Below, one piece after another: positions 43,303-54,097 of a stretch of 64,000 bases of DNA (positions are counted from its first letter, which is position 1; each line of letters opens with the position of its first letter). Both the position numbers and the translations under genes were made by a program. The notes under the pieces are model-generated. The model was given only the letters and a program-made list of their open reading frames with translations, made no database searches and was not told the DNA's origin. Source of the stretch: Terriglobia bacterium. Its GTDB lineage: Bacteria; Acidobacteriota; Terriglobia; 20CM-2-55-15. The stretch lies in assembly GCA_965263045.1 (NCBI GenBank), contig CBDHGK010000005.1, forward strand, positions 13,377 through 77,376. The letters are read 5' to 3'.

Positions 43303-43635
43303 CTATTCCGAGTCTTCCCCGCCCTCCGGGCCGTAGAAGAACACCCAGACTGCAAGGTCGGAGGAAAACTCCTCAAAGCGGTGCGACTGGCCGGCGGCTA
43401 CAAAAAGGAAGGAACCCGGGCCGACCGGGTGGCGGTCGGCGCCATCGAAAAAGATGCCGTGGCCGCGAACGACGACGTAGATCTCATCGCGACTATGAGG
43501 TTTCTGGGGATCGTGATCCTTCGGCGTGTACAGCTCAGCCTCGAGCGATCCGTGGGAGAAGACCGGTACGGCCAGATTCCCGGCGGGCGGTGGCCCCATG
43601 GCCAGTACTTCGTCGGGATGTGTTGCAACTTTCAA
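43303..43635 (-). CDS. Cupin-domain protein (5' end lies in an IS6 terminus)
   Basis: PHSRDEIYVVVRG and HRFE cupin motifs. Confidence 0.8.
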   Translation of the reverse strand: MKVATHPDEVLAMGPPPAGNLAVPVFSHGSLEAELYTPKDHDPQKPHSRDEIYVVVRGHGIFFDGADRHPVGPGSFLFVAAGQSHRFEEFSSDLAVWVFFYGPEGGEDSE

Positions 43636-44140
43636 AAATCAGCAAGAGAGCGACTGGTTGGGTTGACTTGGCTCCGTCTCATGCGGCTACCTCGAAGAGC
43701 TTGTTGATGAACTGAATCTGTTGCCGAACATCCGAACCGCTCACCCACCTCGCCTGCCCCTTCCGGATCATGTGCATGGTCTCATATCCCTGGATCGTTC
43801 GCCGCGCCGCGTGGAATTCACGAAAGCCCTGCTTCGCCTTCACGCGTCGTTTGATCGCCCGATGATCCTGCTCCAGGATGTTGTTCAAGTATTGGACAGG
43901 TCGGTGGCGGCAACGGCGGCGCAGGATTCCTTCCTGCTTCACTCCTGAAATCGCAGAGCCGTAAAGGGGCGCCTGGTCCGTGTTGATGACGCGGGGCTGT
44001 CGATGCGACGGGTTCGCCAGCGCCTTGCGGAACAGGCGTTTAGCCGTAGCGGCATCGCGTAACCCGGAGAGCACAAAATCGATCGTGGCTCCGGTGGAAT
44101 CGATGGCGCGGTAGAGGTAGCACCAACGGCCCTGGACACG
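43616..44140 (-). mobile_element. IS6-family element, 3' half with terminal repeat
   Basis: GRWCYLYRAID..VINTD..YLNNILEQDHRAIKRR; end GGATGTGTTGCAACTTT at 43616. Confidence 0.9.
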
Positions 44141-44676: not shown

Positions 44677-44938
44677 CGTAGAGAATCCGGAATGGACCGC
44701 AGAAGAGATTCGCCAAGCACGGCCGTTGATGGACGTGTTGCCCAAGGAAACAGCGGAAGCCGTTCGCCGGTATCGAGGTCAGCGCGGTCCTCAGAAGAGC
44801 CCTACGAAGGAACTGGTCAGCCTGCGCGTCGACCGCGACGTCGTGGAGGCCTATCGCGCGACGGGCTCCGCCTGGCAGAAGCGAGCTAACGAGGCGTTGC
44901 GCGTGTACGCCAAGAAGAGCGGTTTGACTGAAGAATGA
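44651..44938 (+). CDS. brnA: BrnA antitoxin
   Basis: DVENPEWT..RGPQKSPTKELVSLRVDRDVVEAYRATGSAWQKRANEALR. Confidence 0.9.
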   Translation: MRKNASRPDVENPEWTAEEIRQARPLMDVLPKETAEAVRRYRGQRGPQKSPTKELVSLRVDRDVVEAYRATGSAWQKRANEALRVYAKKSGLTEE

Positions 44939-45864
44939 AACCTCCCGCGTCGGGGAACCATGGTGCCGGCGGGTGCTCGGTGGCCAAAGCCGAAATAGAG
45001 AGTCCCAGTATAGCTGGCACTTACATCATCGGGCTGTTCGATATACTCGGGCAGACGCACAAGCTCCGCGACCTACCAAGTTTCCTCGCCCCACCCGGAA
45101 CCCCCGCACGCGCCGAGGCGATCTCCGCCTTAAGCGAAGTGACCCGTGAGGTAGCTGACTTACGGTGGCTGTTCCGGCAGCAGTTCGAGGCTTTCGGCGC
45201 ATCTGTTGCTCGGATGGCCGCCACGTGCGGCCTGGAGGGTAATGAGATCGCACTGTTGGAGCCGAGTTTCAGGCAGTGGGGTATGTCCGACTCGTACGTC
45301 GTAGCCATTCCGCCGCCACGCCACGACGACGAGCGAGTCTCTCGGCTAGCCGATGTGTACCGCCTGCTGTCCGCAGCAGCGTGTACGTGGCTGCACGCCA
45401 TGAGAGTGAACCTGCCCATCCGAGGCGGGATAGAGTTGGGCCTCGCCGTGGCCATAGAGGAGAACGAGGTCTACGGCCACCCGCTGGCTGAGGCTCATCT
45501 GCTGGAGAGCACGGTCGCGCAGTATCCCAGGATAGTAGTCGGGCCGGAGCTCGTGACCTTGCTAAACAGCGCCTGGAGGATCGAGACCCAAGATGCAGGG
45601 CACTCGGCGTTGGCCAGTCTGTTCGCACAGGCGTCCCTGGCCCTCATTCAAAGGGACGAGGACGAGCGGCGGGTGGTTGATGTCACCAGCACAGTTGTAG
45701 TTGAGCACCTACGGGAAGCTATGCCCGATCTGCTGCCGGCCGTGATGCGGAATGTTGAGCAGCAGCTCAGGTGCCACGACGAAGCCGGATGCAAAAAGCT
45801 GGTGGAACGCTACCAGTGGCTGCAGCGCCGCCTAGCCGGGCTCGGTGACAGATATGGCCACTGA
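44935..45864 (+). CDS. Class III nucleotidyl-cyclase-like protein
   Basis: LFDILG, MSDSYVV, IRGGIELG, VYG..LAEAHLLES..YPRIVV. Confidence 0.7.
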   Translation: MKPPASGNHGAGGCSVAKAEIESPSIAGTYIIGLFDILGQTHKLRDLPSFLAPPGTPARAEAISALSEVTREVADLRWLFRQQFEAFGASVARMAATCGLEGNEIALLEPSFRQWGMSDSYVVAIPPPRHDDERVSRLADVYRLLSAAACTWLHAMRVNLPIRGGIELGLAVAIEENEVYGHPLAEAHLLESTVAQYPRIVVGPELVTLLNSAWRIETQDAGHSALASLFAQASLALIQRDEDERRVVDVTSTVVVEHLREAMPDLLPAVMRNVEQQLRCHDEAGCKKLVERYQWLQRRLAGLGDRYGH

Positions 45865-46325: not shown

Positions 46326-46649
46326 TCACGCTGGCGGTCTAACGGCCTTCTCCAGATACCGTGGGGCCGTCTCTCGGATGCGCAAGGCGTGGGAGAAGAT
46401 GTCCCTCACGTCGTCGACGTGCACACGCTCCTCCGACTTGTTCGCGTCGAAGAGCCCGAGCCGCTTTTGAGCCGTGTTGAAGTGCAGCCGGCAGATCGGT
46501 TGCCGGTTCGTATTGTCTAGGAGCCTGTCGGGAATTGGCTCCCTCGAAGCAAGAATCAACAACTTACGAGCCATCCCTGGTCTGTAAGTTGTTGATTCTT
46601 GCTTGCAGACTTCTTATTCCCGACAGGCTCCTAGCAGCACCGAGCAGTA
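46326..46649 (-). pseudogene. C-terminal remnant of a restriction-endonuclease-like (HsdR N-domain-type) protein, split by a MITE
   Basis: Removing the MITE restores YCSVLLDNTNRQPICRLHFNTAQKRLGLFD. Confidence 0.65.
46521..46630. mobile_element. 110-bp MITE with IS5-like ends and CTAG duplication
   Basis: CTAG-GAGCCTGTCGGGAAT...ATTCCCGACAGGCTC-CTAG; internal 20-bp inverted repeat AGCAAGAATCAACAACTTAC. Confidence 0.85.
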
Positions 46650-46802: not shown

Positions 46803-46932
46803 CACGATGGCCGGAATCGGTGTTCAGGATCACCGGAATCACTGTTCAGGATCCCGGAATCCGCGTTCACGATCCCGGAATCGGTGTTCACGATGGATCG
46901 GAATCAGTGTTCAGGATGGTCCGGAATACGCA
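46803..46932 (+). mobile_element. IS21-family terminus with multiple transposase-binding repeats
   Basis: Five (C/T)CGGAATCnnnGTTCA(G/C)GAT units at 21-23 bp spacing, ending CCGGAATACGCA. Confidence 0.8.
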
Positions 46933-46951: not shown

Positions 46952-47938
46952 TTAGTCGCGGCGTAACGGTGACGAAGTGCGTACGAAGTGCGTAGGCCCA
47001 GTTCCTGAGGTGTACGGGTCTCGGAACCCCACCGGCGTTGGATAGACAACTTCACATTCCACAATGGTCGCGATGGCGACCGCAAAACCCACGGCACTAA
47101 GCTTCGATGCGGCAGGCACGACAATCAGTCTGTGGCTGTACTTGTACTTACTGAACACTTCTTCAAGGGCGTTCCTCGACTCCTCGACCGAAGCGGTAGA
47201 GACCGTGATTACTTGGTCTGCAGTATCGAAAGCGAACGCGTTCATTTCTCGGACGGCCTGGTGTCGCCAGCCGTTTTCGTTACCTGGAGGACGACCTTCC
47301 AACAAGACTAGTTTTGACGGTGTAAGTTCGTTAATCAGCGCGCGAATGAAGCGAGGTTCGAAGTTTGGAGATGCTACCAAGATCACTGGCTCTCCGCCCA
47401 TGGCGGCCAGTGTCAAGTCGGGCACTGCCGTGATGCCAAAGAGTCCCGTCGTAAGAAACACCTGACCTGTCTCCTGCCCTTTCCTAGAGTTTGAGTCAGC
47501 CAGCCACTCTGCTTTAGTCGGATGGTACACACTAGGTTCTGTGTATGCGATGACGGGAGGGTTGCGGACCCTCATGAGCCTTGTGACCAGTACGAGGGCA
47601 AGAAATTTCGACATCCCTGAAACATCGAGGACAATGGGCTGCTGTCCGTACGATGCTACCAATGCATCGGCGGTGAGCGCAGTCGATTCGAATGGATGAA
47701 ACCGATCGAACTTTGCCTCGGAGACTCCGGATCCGACGATTGTTGCCAAGTTCAGTGCTTCCTGAAGTCTGTTATTGCCATCGTGCGGCAGGTAATCCAC
47801 GATTACGACTCGGAGATATCGTTTGCCCCTATTGGCGCAATCTTTCAGGTATGCGACCGAGCGTTCTTCAAAGCCAGCGGCGACGAAAAGTACGGCATCG
47901 GTCGTTTCGTGGGGTTCTTCTGACAATAGTGCTGTCAC
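46952..47938 (-). CDS. Tandem Rossmann/CARF-like domain protein, 328 aa
   Basis: Two similar halves: AAGFEERS..LDVSGMSK..AYTEP and SPNFEPRF..VPAASKL..VYPTP; GTGA overlap with the upstream gene. Confidence 0.75.
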   Translation of the reverse strand: MTALLSEEPHETTDAVLFVAAGFEERSVAYLKDCANRGKRYLRVVIVDYLPHDGNNRLQEALNLATIVGSGVSEAKFDRFHPFESTALTADALVASYGQQPIVLDVSGMSKFLALVLVTRLMRVRNPPVIAYTEPSVYHPTKAEWLADSNSRKGQETGQVFLTTGLFGITAVPDLTLAAMGGEPVILVASPNFEPRFIRALINELTPSKLVLLEGRPPGNENGWRHQAVREMNAFAFDTADQVITVSTASVEESRNALEEVFSKYKYSHRLIVVPAASKLSAVGFAVAIATIVECEVVYPTPVGFRDPYTSGTGPTHFVRTSSPLRRD

Positions 47939-50409
47939 GTCTCTTCTTGATCTCGGAAATTTAGGCGCGGCACGTTAGCGTTCTTCTTCTCACGACGTTT
48001 CTTCAGGGCTTGGTTCTTAAAGCCCTCGGGATCGGACAAGAGGCGTTTGAACTCTCTTACCTCCATTCCCACGTTGTCGCGACGTGAGAAGGTCAGTCGA
48101 CAAATAGGGATGAGAAGCCTGCGCAAATATAATCTATCTACCGTAGCCGATCTCAAGCTACGTCCTGTTGAATCGCGAATGAACACTCCGTACCTGAGGA
48201 GTGCTTCATAAACCTGCTTTAGCTTTGCTTCCGAGTCATCGAATTCAAGTGCGTCCCTTAATTCGATGCGAAACGCCTGTTTCGGTGGGGTGCTCCCTTG
48301 GTTAGGGGAGTCTAGATTCATCAGCTCCCAATGCGCCACTTCGCCGAAGGAGTCTGCGATCTTTCGGATCAAAGGGCCATGACTGGGAGCCGCTTCTATA
48401 TTCGAAAGAAAGTCCGCTCCCAGCTTCATAATCGCGCGGTTCTGAATAGAGGCGTCAACAGGAAGATCCCGAGGCTTAGCGTCGGCGATCTTAGCGATCC
48501 CGCCTACTCCAGCTACTATGTCGCGGATCAACCGCAAGGTGTGCGTAATGTCCCCCGAGCACATATCAACGATGACGTCTAGGCCGCGATATTTTAGCTG
48601 CTGGGGTGATCGGAGCTGGCGAGCCATTTCATTGTAGGCGAGTTCACCGTCCCCGAGCAACACCTCCAGTGAAGGCAGCGATTGCCTCTTGACTGCGTGG
48701 AACCTGGTATTTACGACGTCCGAGATAAACTGTCTGCGGGAGTCCGCTTCAGCAGTCATGAAGGATGCACCAAGATCCATCACCGAATACTCGCGATCCG
48801 GTTCGAGCAATTTCCCCGATGAATCATGCGGATGGAGGCTTGTAATATGCTCCGTGGCAACCTTAAAGAACACGGTGTCCCACCGCTGAAATATCGCCCG
48901 GTTCAAACTCGCCTGAAGTTGCTCGGATACTCTCGGCGTAGAGTAATCATCTAGGAATACGAATGATGAGAGTCCTTCTAGCCACGGCACAGCATTTGTG
49001 AATGCTGCTAACATCTCGGGAACAAAATCCAAACCCAAGGCGGGCACGTCCATGACGGAGCCACGCTGCATCGCCAGTTTGGTCGTGAGACGAGCAGAAT
49101 CTACTTGTGCGCGTATGTCAGCAAGGGATGTAGGATTCTTTTCGCGATTTCGAATGTTGGGCAACCGCGATACCGTCCACGACACGATGTTACGCACAAC
49201 TGGACTCTTGAGTTCAACTTCTGTCTGCGACATCGCAATCTGGTCGATGCTCGTTAGCGTCTCGGCAAGTAACGACAGGTTGAAGTAGTGCAGTGTGCCT
49301 TCGAGAAAGTGCCGATCGACTTCGGACGTGCTTGAATACGGAAAGGCGTAAAAGAGGTCGGTGCAGTGATAGTAGATTCCGAATAAATTCAATTCGCTCG
49401 CTTCTTCCGCTCCACCCAATACCCGGGACTTGGAAGCCAAGCTCCTCAATAACATAGTCTTGCCGCATCCACGAGGGCCGGTGAGTACGGTATTGCCTTT
49501 CTCAAGAAAGTCAGGAGCGTTCGGAAAGTTCATCTTGAGAAGACTTTGCAAGAGGACGTGTTGCTGTCCCATCTGCTCGCAACTCATGTAATCGAACGGG
49601 TCGTCCAGATTCGCCGATCTCTGGGATCGAGTCGGCGGTTGTCTCAGGCACTCGCGGAATCCTGTCAGGAGGCCTTGAGCGTTTCGGTAAAGTGGATTCG
49701 ATGGGTTTCCTTCTCGCAGGCGTGGAATAAGCCATTCCTCCATTTGGTCACATTCGAAACGCCCAGATCCGCTTGCCGTGTTCCTGCGCGCAACTGGTGT
49801 AAGGGATTGCAACACTTCGCCGACTGATACGTAGTCATCTTTCGGGGTAAGAGAGTTTAGTGAATTTCCTATGCCAAAGTCAGTCAGCCAAAACTCTTCC
49901 ATAGGTTCTACACGGTCGTCGCCGGGAACTTCTATGAGGATATTCCGGTCATGGATGTCTCCATGGCTGATATGGCGTGCCTCCAGGGCGAACAGGAGCG
50001 ACAATAGCTCTTCTCCTATTCGCACACAGAAGCTATTGGTGACCGACTGAGGGAACAACTCGACGTACTGTCTAAGGTCGTAGCCTTCTATCCATGGCAT
50101 TACGATAAAAACATAAGATGCTGTCTCCCCTGGGAGTGTAATTGTCTGGACTCGTTCAGGCCGAACGACCTTTATAGATTGCGCGAGCAGGTGGGGCTTT
50201 CTTATCTCCTCGTGCCAACCGGCTCTGACGTTTGCATGCGGTATGACCTTGACCGCCACCGGCCTTCCGTGGCCCGCAATGGTCTGCGTGGCTCTATACA
50301 CGAGCCCGTTCTTTCCGCCGCGAAAGAACCCATCGAGCTTGATGCCGGGTTCAAGCGTGTAGCCTTCAAATAGCTCGGGTTTCGGTAGATTTCGTGTAGC
50401 CACGATCAA
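47935..50409 (-). CDS. Ser/Thr kinase fused to P-loop ATPase (ORC/CDC6- or STAND-like)
   Basis: Kinase motifs GGKNGLVY, VAVKVI, HGDIHDRNILI, TDFG; Walker A GPRGCGKT; Walker B VFLDDY. Confidence 0.9.
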   Translation of the reverse strand: MIVATRNLPKPELFEGYTLEPGIKLDGFFRGGKNGLVYRATQTIAGHGRPVAVKVIPHANVRAGWHEEIRKPHLLAQSIKVVRPERVQTITLPGETASYVFIVMPWIEGYDLRQYVELFPQSVTNSFCVRIGEELLSLLFALEARHISHGDIHDRNILIEVPGDDRVEPMEEFWLTDFGIGNSLNSLTPKDDYVSVGEVLQSLTPVARRNTASGSGRFECDQMEEWLIPRLREGNPSNPLYRNAQGLLTGFRECLRQPPTRSQRSANLDDPFDYMSCEQMGQQHVLLQSLLKMNFPNAPDFLEKGNTVLTGPRGCGKTMLLRSLASKSRVLGGAEEASELNLFGIYYHCTDLFYAFPYSSTSEVDRHFLEGTLHYFNLSLLAETLTSIDQIAMSQTEVELKSPVVRNIVSWTVSRLPNIRNREKNPTSLADIRAQVDSARLTTKLAMQRGSVMDVPALGLDFVPEMLAAFTNAVPWLEGLSSFVFLDDYSTPRVSEQLQASLNRAIFQRWDTVFFKVATEHITSLHPHDSSGKLLEPDREYSVMDLGASFMTAEADSRRQFISDVVNTRFHAVKRQSLPSLEVLLGDGELAYNEMARQLRSPQQLKYRGLDVIVDMCSGDITHTLRLIRDIVAGVGGIAKIADAKPRDLPVDASIQNRAIMKLGADFLSNIEAAPSHGPLIRKIADSFGEVAHWELMNLDSPNQGSTPPKQAFRIELRDALEFDDSEAKLKQVYEALLRYGVFIRDSTGRSLRSATVDRLYLRRLLIPICRLTFSRRDNVGMEVREFKRLLSDPEGFKNQALKKRREKKNANVPRLNFRDQEET

Positions 50410-51515
50410 CCTCTTCTGAAAACCAAGACGGTTTCCCGTTTCGTGCCACGCAGGTCTCGCCGGGATCTCCGGATATCTGGGATAACATCGTCGATCCGCT
50501 CCACCAATTTAAATTGCCGAAGTGAAGTTGAAGTAAAGACCTCAGTCAGAATACCGGCTGTATCCGTACGCGTTCCTGAGCGTGTCGCCTCCCCTACGAC
50601 AAAGATGAATGAACTCCCCATCTGCATGCCGCGGGACAGTCGAACGCACACCGCAGTCATGAGGTTCGCGTACCGCTCCACATTGGGACCGCGCAAAGAG
50701 TCTGCAGCCCCGCTGAGCGATCGCAGTAGTAGCCATATCCGGAGGCGGTTATCCCTTACGTAGTCAAGTTCATTCATATATGGCGGACTGGTTACTACCG
50801 AATTGACTACGGGTGGCAGCGGGATCTGGGTTGCGTCGCACATATGGACTCGAATCCGAGGAGCATTTGGAAACCGTGGTCTTCGGTATAGCCGACGGAC
50901 TTTCGCTTCCATTCTCGGAAGGACGTCTCTACGCTCATATAGGCTCGGAAATTCTTCTCGCGGAAATCTTTTATTCCGAAGGTATGGGACGAGGTGGCTG
51001 CTTGGAAAAGAAAGGAAGCCTGGTCGCTGATGATGCAGAATACTCAGGAGGCAAGCCATGAGAAAATAGTCACGCTGTTGAACGCACTCGTCACGGAGAG
51101 CGAGCACATCCCTAAGCGTTTCCGAGTGAAAGAACGACCGCACCCAAGAAGGCACTTGCCTAAGATCTTGATGGCTGCGACGGGCCATCGCACTTTCCCA
51201 GCGCCGTCCGAGCCGACGGAGAGCTGCGTCTTCCGATCTAGGCGCAAAGAGCTTCGCCCGAGTGAGAGTAATACCATAAGGATTGATATCGCTTGCAGCA
51301 ACGCTCCGACCTCTGATCGCAGCCTCGAACGGCACAACTCCGGATCCCGCAAACGGATCAACGACCATCCCACCCGGGTCTGTGTACTGCTCAATCAAGT
51401 ACTGGGCGATGGTAGTCTTCATTCGACCAATGTAAGGAGCGATCTGCTGGAAGGTACTGTCGGTTCTTGTCGTTGCCTCTTTGGACCATGGGATCGCAGC
51501 GACCTTTTCAGTCAT
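50406..51515 (-). CDS. DNA amino-methyltransferase (SPPY type, probably N4-cytosine)
   Basis: PYIGRM, motif I VVDPFAGSG, DINPY, motif IV TSPPY; GGAAGG RBS before ATG at 51515. Confidence 0.9.
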   Translation of the reverse strand: MTEKVAAIPWSKEATTRTDSTFQQIAPYIGRMKTTIAQYLIEQYTDPGGMVVDPFAGSGVVPFEAAIRGRSVAASDINPYGITLTRAKLFAPRSEDAALRRLGRRWESAMARRSHQDLRQVPSWVRSFFHSETLRDVLALRDECVQQRDYFLMACLLSILHHQRPGFLSFPSSHLVPYLRNKRFPREEFPSLYERRDVLPRMEAKVRRLYRRPRFPNAPRIRVHMCDATQIPLPPVVNSVVTSPPYMNELDYVRDNRLRIWLLLRSLSGAADSLRGPNVERYANLMTAVCVRLSRGMQMGSSFIFVVGEATRSGTRTDTAGILTEVFTSTSLRQFKLVERIDDVIPDIRRSRRDLRGTKRETVLVFRRG

Positions 51516-51630
51516 TGTCCGCCTTCCAAGGAAACCTATCTGAGACCTGTCGATGAGGAGACACTCCCGCTGGGATCGACAGCCTTCACAACGACCGCAA
51601 GGTACACACGTTGATCCAGCAGATCGTTCG

Positions 51631-51900
51631 TGTAAGTCCTCAGTGGTCACTTCAAAACCGGCCAACGGGGATGGCCCGGGACGGTGTTGTTCTACCTCTT
51701 TTGGACCGGACTCGGCAAGCCCGTTTTAGTCCTCCAACTCCGAGGGCCGCATTTGAGGATGTGGCCGTGATGGAGCAGCCGGTCCAGCATCGCGGTAACA
51801 GCAGCGCTGTCGCCGAGTAGTTTTCCCCAATCTTCGACCGGCCGATTCGATGTCAGTAGCGTACTGGTCCGTTCATAGCGTCGCATCACGATCTGAAGGA
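51631..51900 (-). mobile_element. istB: IS21-family remnant: istB 3' end and terminus
   Basis: RRYERTSTLLTSNRPVEDWG..AMLDRLLHH; end TGTAAGTCCTCAGTGGTCACTTCAAAACCGGCCA. Confidence 0.85.
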
Positions 51901-52299: not shown

Positions 52300-52480
52300 C
52301 TAGTAGAGGGATTCGTCGTGGTCGCTGTCGTTGGTGGCGACAAGGCGGCGCTGGCGCGGGAGATGCATGGCTGGGTCGTGCATCAGGCGTTTGATCTTCA
52401 TGTGCTTCATGATCCAGCCGCGATCCCTCAGCGCCGCATGCATGCGGCACCAGCCATAGGCGGCGGGATCGCTTCGATTA
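52300..52480 (-). pseudogene. Degenerate IS3-family OrfB fragment
   Basis: AYGWCRMHAALRDRGW..RRLVATNDSDHD. Confidence 0.65.
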
Positions 52481-52603
52481 CTTATTGGGCGCTGGCAATG
52501 GGGATAGTCCAAGTTCCTTCAGAAACACGTTGTGCTTGGCCGTTGACTCCCGAATCTGCTTCTCGATTTCGACCAACTCCTTGGGCGTGGCCGACAGATC
52601 GAT
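52478..52603 (-). pseudogene. hsdM: Type I RM methyltransferase (HsdM) C-terminal remnant
   Basis: IDLSAT.KELVEIEKQIRESTAKHNVFLKELGLSPLP matches the typical HsdM tail. Confidence 0.6.
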
Positions 52604-52966
52604 CGTGGCTCCGGTGGAATCGATGGCGCGGTAGAGGTAGCACCAACGGCCCTTGACACGAACGTAGGTCTCATCCACACGCCAGGACTTATTGGTTGGC
52701 TTGAGATGACGGCGCAAGCGCTCCTCCAGTTCCGGACCGTAGCGCTGGACCCAGCGCCAGATTGTCGTGTGGTCCGCTTCCAGGCCGCGCTCGTTGAGCA
52801 GCTCTTCGACATCGCGGAACGAGAGTGAGTGCCGTAGGTGCCAGCGCACAGCGCAAAGAATCAGCTCGGGCTCGGTTTGTCGCCACTTGAAGATCGCCGG
52901 TCGGATTGTCTTTTTCATGGTCTCTTCAGGTTACCAGGCACCGTCGGCCAAAGTTGCAACACAACC
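52598..52966 (-). mobile_element. IS6-family element, 5' half with terminal repeat
   Basis: FKWRQTEPELILCAVRW..WRVDETYVRVKGRWCYLYRAID; end GGTTGTGTTGCAACTTT at 52966. Confidence 0.9.
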
Positions 52967-53029
52967 CCTCTAAGTCATTAATTCCTAGTCTCGGCTTCAG
53001 CAGATTCCGCCCACAAACCGGGCGAATTC

Positions 53030-53048: not shown

Positions 53049-53221
53049 ACTACGAGGCCCCTTTCATTTATAGCATTAAAGCATTAATGCTATATCTTGC
53101 CATCCTGCCTCCGTCGAAAATGGACTTGTAATGCCAAATATTTGTATTAACATGGTGTTACAGCTGTGGAGCATCAATGCCACCTAGCATTCTCACGACA
53201 AGGCGATATGGGGATAATGCT

Positions 53222-54097
53222 ATGACAATCGCGAACAGAAAGACACACATCATCGCAGTCGGCAATCAAAAGGGGGGAGTAGGGAAGACCACCAACACCG
53301 TGCACATCGCAACGGCGCTCGGCGAGCTTGGCCGTCAAAGCCTGATTTGGGACCTCGACATGAACCATGGCGCAACACGCCATTTCGGAATCGAAGGCAA
53401 TGCGTATCTCGGTTCCTTCGAAGTGCTCATCGGAGACGAGGCTCCAGAAAACGTCATCATGGACGGAAGCAACCAGGAAGTTGATCTACCCAAGGGTGTG
53501 CACCTGCTGCCAGCGAACCGCAAGCTTGAGCAGATTGACGATACGCTTACATCGAAAAACAAGTTCATCATCAAGCACCAGGTGCTCATCGAGCCTCTCA
53601 AACGCCTGAGAGGCAGATACGATTACATCTTTTTGGATACGGCGCCGAATGCAACAACCCCGACAATAGCAGCCTACTTTGCGGCAGAGTGGTTCCTGCT
53701 GACCGCTATTCCAGACCCGTTTGCGATAGAAGGGTTGAACGACGCGCTGCAGGACATCGCAAGCGTGAGAGAGCACGGAAACCCAGATATCACGGTCCTC
53801 GGGGTAGTGCTGACAACCGTGAATCGACGCACTCGACTCGGCCAAACGCTTGCCGAGTATGTCGAGCAGACTTTTACACTACCAAGCGGGTTGTGTCTCA
53901 AATTCGAGACCGAGATAGGGCGCTCAACCATTATTCCAACAGCTCAGAAGATTGGAAAAACAGTATTTCAAACTGAACCGACTCACAAAGTCACAGAGCA
54001 GTATCGAGAGCTTGCACGGGAATTCGAAGCGCAGTTTGAAAAACTGAAGCCACTACTAGATGAAGAGTATCAAGCCTCGACGGTGGCCAACACTTAA
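53222..54097 (+). CDS. parA: ParA/Soj partition ATPase
   Basis: NQKGGVGKTT, DLDMN, YDYIFLDTAP. Confidence 0.95.
   Translation: MTIANRKTHIIAVGNQKGGVGKTTNTVHIATALGELGRQSLIWDLDMNHGATRHFGIEGNAYLGSFEVLIGDEAPENVIMDGSNQEVDLPKGVHLLPANRKLEQIDDTLTSKNKFIIKHQVLIEPLKRLRGRYDYIFLDTAPNATTPTIAAYFAAEWFLLTAIPDPFAIEGLNDALQDIASVREHGNPDITVLGVVLTTVNRRTRLGQTLAEYVEQTFTLPSGLCLKFETEIGRSTIIPTAQKIGKTVFQTEPTHKVTEQYRELAREFEAQFEKLKPLLDEEYQASTVANT

Follow-up and report, generated by a model that had tools for sequence, protein, structure and literature searches.

A conserved three-gene cassette of a predicted DNA methyltransferase, a kinase-ATPase and a twin-CARF protein: a candidate methylation-associated defence system

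Introduction

Three adjacent minus-strand genes in the genome of a Terriglobia bacterium (phylum Acidobacteriota) form a real module, the members of which are obligately linked and co-evolving. The genes encode a predicted DNA methyltransferase (gene 1), a Ser/Thr kinase fused to an AAA+ ATPase (gene 2) and a protein comprised of two CARF-like folds (gene 3). They lie at positions 46952-51515 of the window, which is the whole stretch of 64,000 nucleotides analyzed here and corresponds to positions 13377-77376 of the 80.5-kb contig CBDHGK010000005.1 (C5) in an 8.45-Mb assembly of one 6.47-Mb contig and 40 small ones (GCA_965263045.1). The module is probably a defence or conflict cassette in general. 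More specifically, we lean toward a three-gene, methylation-associated cassette directed against phages or plasmids, and its most likely mechanism would be that of a methylation-gated kinase switched by an ATPase.

Results

The trio is a conserved unit

A profile of gene 2 was run against contigs from one genome per species and gave at least 176 confirmed loci. The best 80 were fetched, of which 74 had an informative upstream region and 78 had room downstream. A gene 1 orthologue is located directly upstream of gene 2 and on the same strand at 72 of the 74, and gene 3 is present at every one of the 78. The preliminary description of this DNA, which had proposed a defence operon, named a lack of conserved co-occurrence in other genomes as a reason to give the proposal up, and the synteny of the trio points decisively the other way. 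At one locus (L021) the upstream slot is taken by a different, divergent methylase. At another (L054, on the Halosimplex aquaticum chromosome) there is no methylase, the kinase-ATPase is without its first ~190 residues and the CARF gene is in two pieces 1.6 kb apart; this is a decaying copy. No fourth gene is conserved, as every other gene cluster occurs in at most 8 of the 80 loci.

The hosts include archaea (Bathyarchaeia, Methanoperedens, Natrinema, Methanoregula and Thermoplasmatota) and members of more than 12 bacterial phyla, including Planctomycetota, Verrucomicrobiota, Acidobacteriota, Nitrospirota, Myxococcota, Proteobacteria, Chloroflexota, Actinomycetota and Spirochaetia. Across 64 complete loci, pairwise distances are correlated between the methylase and the kinase-ATPase (0.79), between the methylase and the CARF protein (0.81) and, most closely, between the kinase-ATPase and the CARF protein (0.95). 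Throughout the family there is little or no variation in the catalytic residues of the kinase, in the Walker A and B motifs, in motifs I and IV of the methylase or in the CARF motifs.

Gene structure and domain content

The three long minus-strand open reading frames (ORFs) span 46952-51665, and all are intact, as had been reported in the preliminary description. Their intactness is not due to chance, since their lengths equal those of the orthologues and all of the family-invariant catalytic residues are present. The earlier domain calls, namely FAGSG and SPPY motifs in gene 1, a Hanks kinase followed by Walker A and B in gene 2 and two Rossmann-like halves in gene 3, all hold. The coordinates of the features are collected in Table 1, and every motif coordinate was re-translated and verified.

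The longest frame for gene 1 is 50406-51665, with a TTG start at 51665. In this frame the alignment with orthologues starts only at about residue 51-58, and the nearest relatives are 368-369 residues long, which together place the true start at the ATG at 51515, just after a GGAAGG, as the preliminary description had it; the protein is then 369 residues long and the operon spans 46952-51515. Gene 1 scores 33.3 bits against the Pfam family N6_N4_Mtase (PF01555; gathering cut-off 26.7) and has motifs I (FxGxG) and IV ([DS]PPY) of that family, and its best PADLOC matches are models of type II methylases (MTase_II, 2.4e-19). When a 30-sequence profile of gene 1 was compared with solved structures, the leading matches were TTHA0409 (2zie, 4e-10) and the N4-cytosine methylase 8s9n (2e-9), followed in order by DpnA, M.MboIIA, M.RsrI, CcrM and M.PvuII. 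Since motif I precedes motif IV, gene 1 is circularly permuted relative to its beta-class relatives. These similarities suggest that the enzyme acts on DNA, where it would form N4-methylcytosine (m4C) or N6-methyladenine (m6A).

Gene 2 encodes 824 residues if translated from the TTG at 50409, or 822 from a GTG at 50403. The latter is more probably the start, as it sits 7 nucleotides (nt) after a GAAGAGG Shine-Dalgarno sequence, a better spacing than that of the TTG, and it accounts for the 822 residues of the database copy. The junctions given in the preliminary description stand in part. The GTGA overlap of genes 2 and 3 (47938/47935), in which the GTG start of gene 3 overlaps the TGA of gene 2, is as described; the TTGA overlap of genes 1 and 2 (50409/50406) is present as well, but the alternative GTG is favoured as the start codon. 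Translational coupling of genes 1 and 2 holds under either start.

The N-terminal part of gene 2 scores 33.2 bits against the Pfam family Pkinase (cut-off 31.7) and has the complete bilobal fold of a Hanks-type kinase. K54, H149-G-D151, N156 and D177-F-G are invariant in 24 homologues, and the HGD motif places the enzyme among the non-RD kinases. An AlphaFold2 model of gene 2 (predicted local distance difference test score, pLDDT, 86.7) matched PknB and many other kinases in Foldseek with probability 1.0 and TM-scores of ~0.6; no structural match was returned for the AAA+ and winged helix-turn-helix (wHTH) part in this search, the results of which were swamped by kinases. A PDB sequence search with the ATPase part likewise found nothing significant. 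Residues ~300-800 match the family ORC-CDC6-like (PF24389) with 147 bits against a cut-off of 27 (1.1e-42). Residues 741-780 of the C-terminal region are well conserved (0.79-0.82), with R753, R759 and R763 invariant, and the modelled helices and hairpin suggest that this region is a wHTH. The least conserved stretch of the protein is a helical insert of ~110 residues after strand 2 (0.34-0.44).

The AlphaFold2 model of gene 3, built with 40 orthologues, has a pLDDT of 91.4 and a predicted TM-score (pTM) of 0.90, and reveals two successive Rossmann-like beta-alpha units. Foldseek matched it with probability 1.0 to the CARF domains of Cam1, Thermus thermophilus Csm6 (TtCsm6), the ring nuclease Sis0455, Can2 and Csa3 (E = 1e-4 to 4e-3), and no match to viral structures was found at E <= 0.001. 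The PADLOC models PDLC01917 (CARF6--CARF_CARF_CARF) match gene 3 at 1.5e-12 across nearly its full length, while no Pfam family and no significant solved sequence relative in the PDB were found for it. The CARF superfamily is recognized by a six-stranded Rossmann-like fold with motifs after beta-1 and beta-4, and gene 3 has both: the conserved residues at these places are GFE[DE]R and D-x-S-G-M-S-[KR] in half 1, and [FS]P.F and P-T-G-S-K-M-Q in half 2, and they coincide with CARF ligand-site positions. The PAASK version of the last motif in the window is a clade trait rather than a sign of decay, since the two closest relatives have it too. The family to which gene 3 belongs is large (1747 clusters at 50% identity, E <= 1e-3) and consists mostly of standalone proteins of ~350 residues. 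On the strength of the model, gene 3 is predicted to be a single-chain pseudo-dimer of CARF folds that binds a nucleotide.

Table 1. Positions in the window of the three genes and of their domains and motifs
Feature	Position	Strand	Basis or remark
Gene 1, 369-residue permuted N6/N4-type DNA amino-methyltransferase (predicted)	50406-51515	-	Pfam, PADLOC, family profile
Methylase motif I, DPFAGSG (S-adenosylmethionine, SAM, binding)	51339-51359	-	D, G, G invariant in 30 orthologues
Methylase motif IV, SPPY (catalytic)	50778-50789	-	SPPYM..L.Y.RDNRLR invariant
Gene 2, Ser/Thr kinase fused to ORC/Cdc6-like AAA+ ATPase, C-terminal wHTH-like region	47935-50409	-	Pfam, PADLOC, AlphaFold2
Kinase domain, residues ~20-260	49630-50352	-	K54, HGDIHDRN, DFG; Foldseek probability 1.0
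Walker A, GPRGCGKT, Arg inside P-loop	49456-49479	-	Invariant in homologues
Walker B, FVFLDD (family hhhhDD)	48946-48963	-	D487, D488 invariant
C-terminal helical lid and wHTH-like helix/beta-hairpin, residues ~650-800, Arg-rich	48010-48462	-	Model secondary structure
Gene 3, 328 residues, two CARF-like Rossmann halves, no other domain	46952-47938	-	AlphaFold2, Foldseek, PADLOC
Gene 3 half-1 motif, DVSGMSK, after beta-4	47606-47626	-	Fits CARF pattern [DN]x[ST]xxx[RK]
Gene 3 half-2 motif, PAASK, after beta-4	47102-47116	-	Family consensus PTGSKMQ; PA[AV]SK clade-specific

Genes 2 and 3 have a fused sister family

A family of proteins in which a Zn ribbon, a Ser-Thr-Tyr kinase, an AAA+ domain with an Arg in its P-loop, a CARF domain and a wHTH are fused was described in 2014, and its CARF domain was suggested to act in a kinase-mediated signalling pathway (Makarova et al., PMC4012209). 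The PADLOC model PDLC01925 (CARF6--CARF_STK_AAA), which is this fused family, matches gene 2 at 3e-28 over model positions 333-760 only. The host genome has a fused paralogue of its own on another contig (C23, 17451-22305; L002/L086), a protein of 1218 residues that PDLC01925 matches over its full length with 1462 bits. The fused proteins and the trio share the same kinase, the same ORC/Cdc6-like AAA+ domain with the GPRGCGKT Arg P-loop and the same CARF family. They differ in that the fused form is one polypeptide with an N-terminal Zn ribbon, whereas the trio divides these parts between two genes and has no Cys cluster at the N-terminus of gene 2, and identity over the ATPase is 26%. Judged by sequence, the window genes are a split relative of the fused family.

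Fusion is rare: of 401 genomes from the phylum, 3 have the fused form (C23 of the host itself, L085 and L087). At each of the three, the fused gene is preceded, with overlapping stop and start codons, by a gene for a protein of ~404 residues (401 on C23). Two of these partner proteins, that on C23 among them, have weak Pfam matches to Glycos_transf_3/PYNP_C, of the thymidine-phosphorylase family; the third has no Pfam match but shares 39-40% identity with both of these. No methylase is found among the three, and the fused family has a thymidine-phosphorylase-like partner where the trio has a methylase.

The preliminary description could name no described system with this architecture. This remains the case for the operon as a whole: no description of the methylase-linked three-gene operon was found in the literature reached, which did not extend to the 2020 CARF census of Makarova et al. 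It does not hold for genes 2 and 3, which are matched by the PADLOC CARF6 models and have relatives in the fused family of 2014. None of the three proteins belongs to a family in NCBIfam, the trio is not described in a 2026 survey of bacteriophage exclusion (BREX) systems (PMC12839542), and a 2026 preprint on ParA-effector systems with Sirtuin or HEPN (bioRxiv 10.64898/2026.10.19.760177) mentions no methyltransferase. Within the literature reached, the linkage of CARF6-type genes to a methylase appears to be new, the parts having been catalogued earlier in piecemeal fashion.

The methylase has been swapped among cassettes

A survey of metagenomes with gene 1 gave at least 542 confirmed loci; the best 80 were fetched and 64 of these were informative. 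At 56 of the 64 the methylase is accompanied by the kinase-ATPase, and by the CARF gene wherever the contig extends far enough. The remaining loci comprise three with GmrSD_N and HEPN genes, two with ParA and SIR2 genes and three apparent orphan methylases, which are followed by convergent, unrelated genes (neighbourhoods judged by eye). Contigs of the IMG/VR virus collection hold seven further methylase loci: two full trios, two with GmrSD_N/NsnA-like and HEPN genes and three with a ParA-like ATPase and SIR2. Cassettes of a methylase with GmrSD_N/NsnA-like and HEPN partners are thus represented by L090, L094, L128, L153 and L167, and those with ParA and SIR2 by L091-L093, L131 and L132. Both kinds share with the trio the layout of a methylase followed by an NTPase or DNA binder and then by a third component; the methylase is orthologous, while the partners differ from those of the trio.

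In a tree of the methylases, the SIR2-type and HEPN-type enzymes are polyphyletic and nested among those of the trio, and the orphans form one clade. This pattern indicates that the partners of the methylase were swapped several times. SIR2 and HEPN are classic effectors typical of phage defence. Methylase-only loci exist, while an intact pair of kinase-ATPase and CARF genes without a methylase was never seen. Small as the numbers are, such an asymmetry is expected if the methylase shields the host against its partners, and together with the SIR2 and HEPN cassettes it is consistent with a methylase that protects or marks self. The exchange of one methylase among SIR2, HEPN and kinase cassettes also appears to be new within the literature reached.

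Comparison with named systems

The combination of a DNA methylase, a Ser/Thr kinase and an ATPase of the ORC/Cdc6 clade in the absence of a classical restriction nuclease is shared with BREX type 2, or phage growth limitation (Pgl), the parts of which are the kinase PglW, the methylase PglX, the ATPase PglY/BrxC and PglZ (background in PMC12839542). The methylation-associated defence system (MADS) likewise has a kinase (MAD6) and ATPases, and type III CRISPR systems have CARF sensors and ring nucleases (Csm6, Can2, Cam1, Csa3 and Sis0455) that share the Rossmann fold and the beta-1 and beta-4 motifs of gene 3. One could therefore take the trio for a degenerate or minimal member of BREX type 2/Pgl or MADS, or for a CARF accessory module of type III CRISPR, and the weak PADLOC matches of the gene 2 kinase to mad6 (2.6e-9) and PD-T4-6, as well as the CARF fold of gene 3, are in keeping with such a view.

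The distinguishing parts of these systems are missing, however. BREX type 2 has PglZ, a PglX of ~1200 residues and BrxD or BrxHI, none of which the trio has; unlike BREX type 2, the trio has its kinase and ATPase in one protein, includes a CARF protein and consists of three genes only. No match to PglZ was found among the three proteins in Pfam or PADLOC, gene 1 has only 369 residues and no PglX among its PADLOC matches, and the 80 loci reveal no conserved fourth gene. The preliminary description had set the locus apart from Pgl/BREX type 2 on the same grounds, and had seen no restriction nuclease. In agreement, no nuclease or helicase domain of the classical restriction-modification (R-M) types I-III was detected in the three proteins with Pfam, PADLOC or NCBIfam. 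MADS has eight genes (mad1-8) and no CARF component, compared with three conserved genes here, and gene 2 scores 21.8 bits against the NCBIfam MAD6 equivalog NF047741, the cut-off of which is 460. Gene 3 differs from the CRISPR sensors in having two CARF folds per chain, no effector domain and no sequence match to solved CARFs. Cas10 (TIGR02577) was not found in the host genome; among 30 trio-bearing genomes 24 had no match and 6 did, 3 of them over the cut-off, in a search with a single model that may miss divergent Csm1. The PglZ/PglX, MAD6 and Cas10 tests effectively refute these identities, which we reject, and membership of the trio in any of the three systems is very improbable.

Genomic setting and mobility

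The contig is plasmid-like. A ParA gene and a BrnA antitoxin (toxin-antitoxin) gene lie near the operon, which sits inside cargo flanked by insertion sequences (IS). The best matches of the ParA gene (53177-54097) in the plasmid database are from cyanobacterial plasmids (Nostoc 58%, Leptolyngbya 48%) and an Isosphaera plasmid (53%). What is left of an IS21 IstB helper ATPase, a C-terminal piece (...MLDRLLHHGHILKCGPRSWRTK...) identified by eye in the translation, occupies ~51692-51892 on the minus strand and ends ~180 nt upstream of the methylase start, and a truncated ORF for an IS6/IS240 DDE transposase is present at 52478-52918. The preliminary description had stated that most of the surrounding genes are broken; these two bear it out for only a part of the surroundings. 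An inverted repeat pair of 26 nt (43607-43632 and 52950-52975) brackets the operon, BrnA and other cargo, as does a direct duplicate of 63 nt, 98% identical, the copies of which (44078-44140 and 52598-52660) are 8.5 kb apart and bracket the operon and cargo. The repeats and the truncated transposase ORF are what would be expected of an IS6 element that was interrupted or duplicated around its cargo.

Homologues of the cassette are mostly chromosomal. None of 60 host relatives from the same genus, family or class carries the trio. Near-identical DNA of the cassette was not found in the plasmid database, and a search at the protein level gave one distant Bradyrhizobium plasmid match in that database and none in phages. 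A close relative with 67% identity adjoins abortive-infection-type genes (Z1, DUF4420 and AIPR), and another with 64% identity is inserted among chromosomal housekeeping genes. The cassette is best explained as self-contained and horizontally mobile.

Such a setting brings up an alternative function, namely that of a selfish addiction or epigenetic-regulation module, in which the methylase silences a growth-arresting kinase-ATPase and a cell that loses the cassette dies or is arrested, which would stabilize the carrier plasmid or island. The adjacent ParA and BrnA genes would suit this function, as would the membership of the gene 2 ATPase in the ORC/Cdc6 type, proteins of which bind replication origins. 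The presence of orphan methylases and the failure to find an intact pair without a methylase would be expected here equally. On the other hand, the chromosomal location of most homologues, with one distant match in the plasmid database, and the SIR2 and HEPN effectors of the sister cassettes, which are typical of phage defence, lead us to regard it as quite unlikely. It overlaps nonetheless with the defence cassette that we favour, since R-M systems are both addictive and defensive.

Three further features lie downstream of the operon. Five tandem direct repeats of 21-22 nt (CCGGAATCGGTGTTCAGGAT and variants) occupy 46811-46917, beginning 35 nt past the gene 3 stop codon. We considered whether the ORC-like ATPase might bind this array and rejected it as part of the system, since the repeats are missing from 63 orthologous loci; they are a local feature, perhaps iterons or a plasmid protein-binding array. 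An inverted repeat of 51 nt (46517-46634; 84% complementary, with a 16-nt spacer) is found between small ORFs. A cyclase-like ORF of 309 residues (44935-45864) was considered as a source for the CARF ligand and rejected, as it has no Pfam match (E <= 0.01) and is not conserved beside the trio elsewhere.

Discussion

An intact, syntenic and co-evolving trio invites the question of how its three products might work. The reading toward which we lean is that the gene 1 methylase marks host DNA with m4C or m6A and probably also supplies DNA recognition, as Mod does in type III R-M systems or PglX in BREX. Gene 2 would then serve as both switch and executor. Its ORC/Cdc6-like AAA+ domain, together with the wHTH, may engage DNA or a cue from the invader, with a recognition surface that is likely to be the helical insert following strand 2, which evolves fast, and ATP-dependent assembly would turn on the N-terminal Ser/Thr kinase. 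The kinase would phosphorylate proteins of the host or the invader, and infection or growth would be halted. The twin-CARF protein may be a physical partner of gene 2, a regulator or co-sensor that binds a nucleotide and tunes or triggers the switch, and its ligand would not come from type III CRISPR. That the products of genes 2 and 3 act together is suggested by their union in a single polypeptide in the fused sister family and by the correlation of their distances.

Several observations weigh against this mechanism. The ~190 residues between motifs I and IV are the most conserved part of the methylase (0.78-0.90) and include the invariant HHQRPGFLS.PSSHLVPYLR, while in R-M and BREX systems this is usually where a methylase that marks self has its variable target-recognition domain. 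Given a conserved rather than variable region, gene 1 may have a fixed DNA motif or a substrate other than DNA. RNA m2G methylases such as Trm14 do match the gene 1 profile, if weakly (only ~1e-3), and the thymidine-phosphorylase-like partner of the fused family raises the possibility that the role of the first gene lies in nucleotide chemistry rather than in epigenetics. A canonical killing domain, be it a nuclease or another, is absent from the three proteins. Nor do the 80 loci have a conserved cyclase or other synthase of a signal near the trio, which leaves the CARF ligand without an evident source. The two halves of gene 3 are not significantly similar in sequence (hhalign E = 0.14), so that its duplication is supported by structure only. 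Finally, the flanks of the 80 loci are heterogeneous and only modestly enriched for defence genes, with a few type III R-M genes, DUF1156 methylases and BrxL.

Some of these observations would be accommodated by a nucleotide-centred system, in which the twin CARF is the key sensor of a diffusible nucleotide that is produced or altered in infection, or a Rossmannoid effector that responds to it, and the enzyme encoded by the first gene acts on nucleotides, RNA or the signal and leaves no self mark on DNA. The invariant inter-motif region of the methylase is in line with this, as is the replacement of the methylase by a nucleoside-phosphorylase-like gene in all three genomes with the fused form. 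Gene 3 occupies the operon slot that SIR2 and HEPN effectors hold in the sister cassettes and retains ligand-site motifs after beta-1 and beta-4 in both halves, and CARF domains were proposed to sense phage-derived nucleotides by Makarova et al. in 2014 (PMC4012209). We nevertheless consider such a system unlikely. Among solved structures, the methylase is best matched by DNA N4C/N6A methylases, which exceed RNA methylases by 6-7 orders of magnitude; the missing signal synthase is a difficulty here too; and gene 3 is without a recognizable catalytic effector domain, its Foldseek matches being to CARFs of sensors or ring nucleases.

Returning to the methylation-gated kinase, a broader and more tentative proposal is that the methylase is the common "Mod-first" subunit of a set of plug-in cassettes, to which it would contribute specificity and self-marking, with interchangeable genes 2 and 3. 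The kinase version might then represent methylation-gated phosphorylation that is tuned by a CARF sensor without CRISPR or a cyclase of the cyclic-oligonucleotide-based antiphage signalling system (CBASS). Since the catalytic residues are conserved throughout, point-mutant tests of these proposals would be easy to design.

If the cassette does defend its hosts, it would be a compact, nuclease-free, three-gene system, the output of which is likely to be protein phosphorylation, and an instance of a CARF sensor outside CRISPR and CBASS. Its breadth is considerable: it extends over Archaea as well as more than 12 phyla of bacteria, and the surveys matched at least 176 species genomes and, in metagenomes, at least 542 loci. 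The swapping of the methylase amounts to a natural experiment in which one modification enzyme has been coupled to different effectors, and it bears on how BREX-like systems that are nuclease-free and methylation-dependent stop phage. Should the plug-in arrangement of a methylase with interchangeable partners prove true, it would provide a new logic for CARF signalling and for the epigenetic discrimination of self from non-self.

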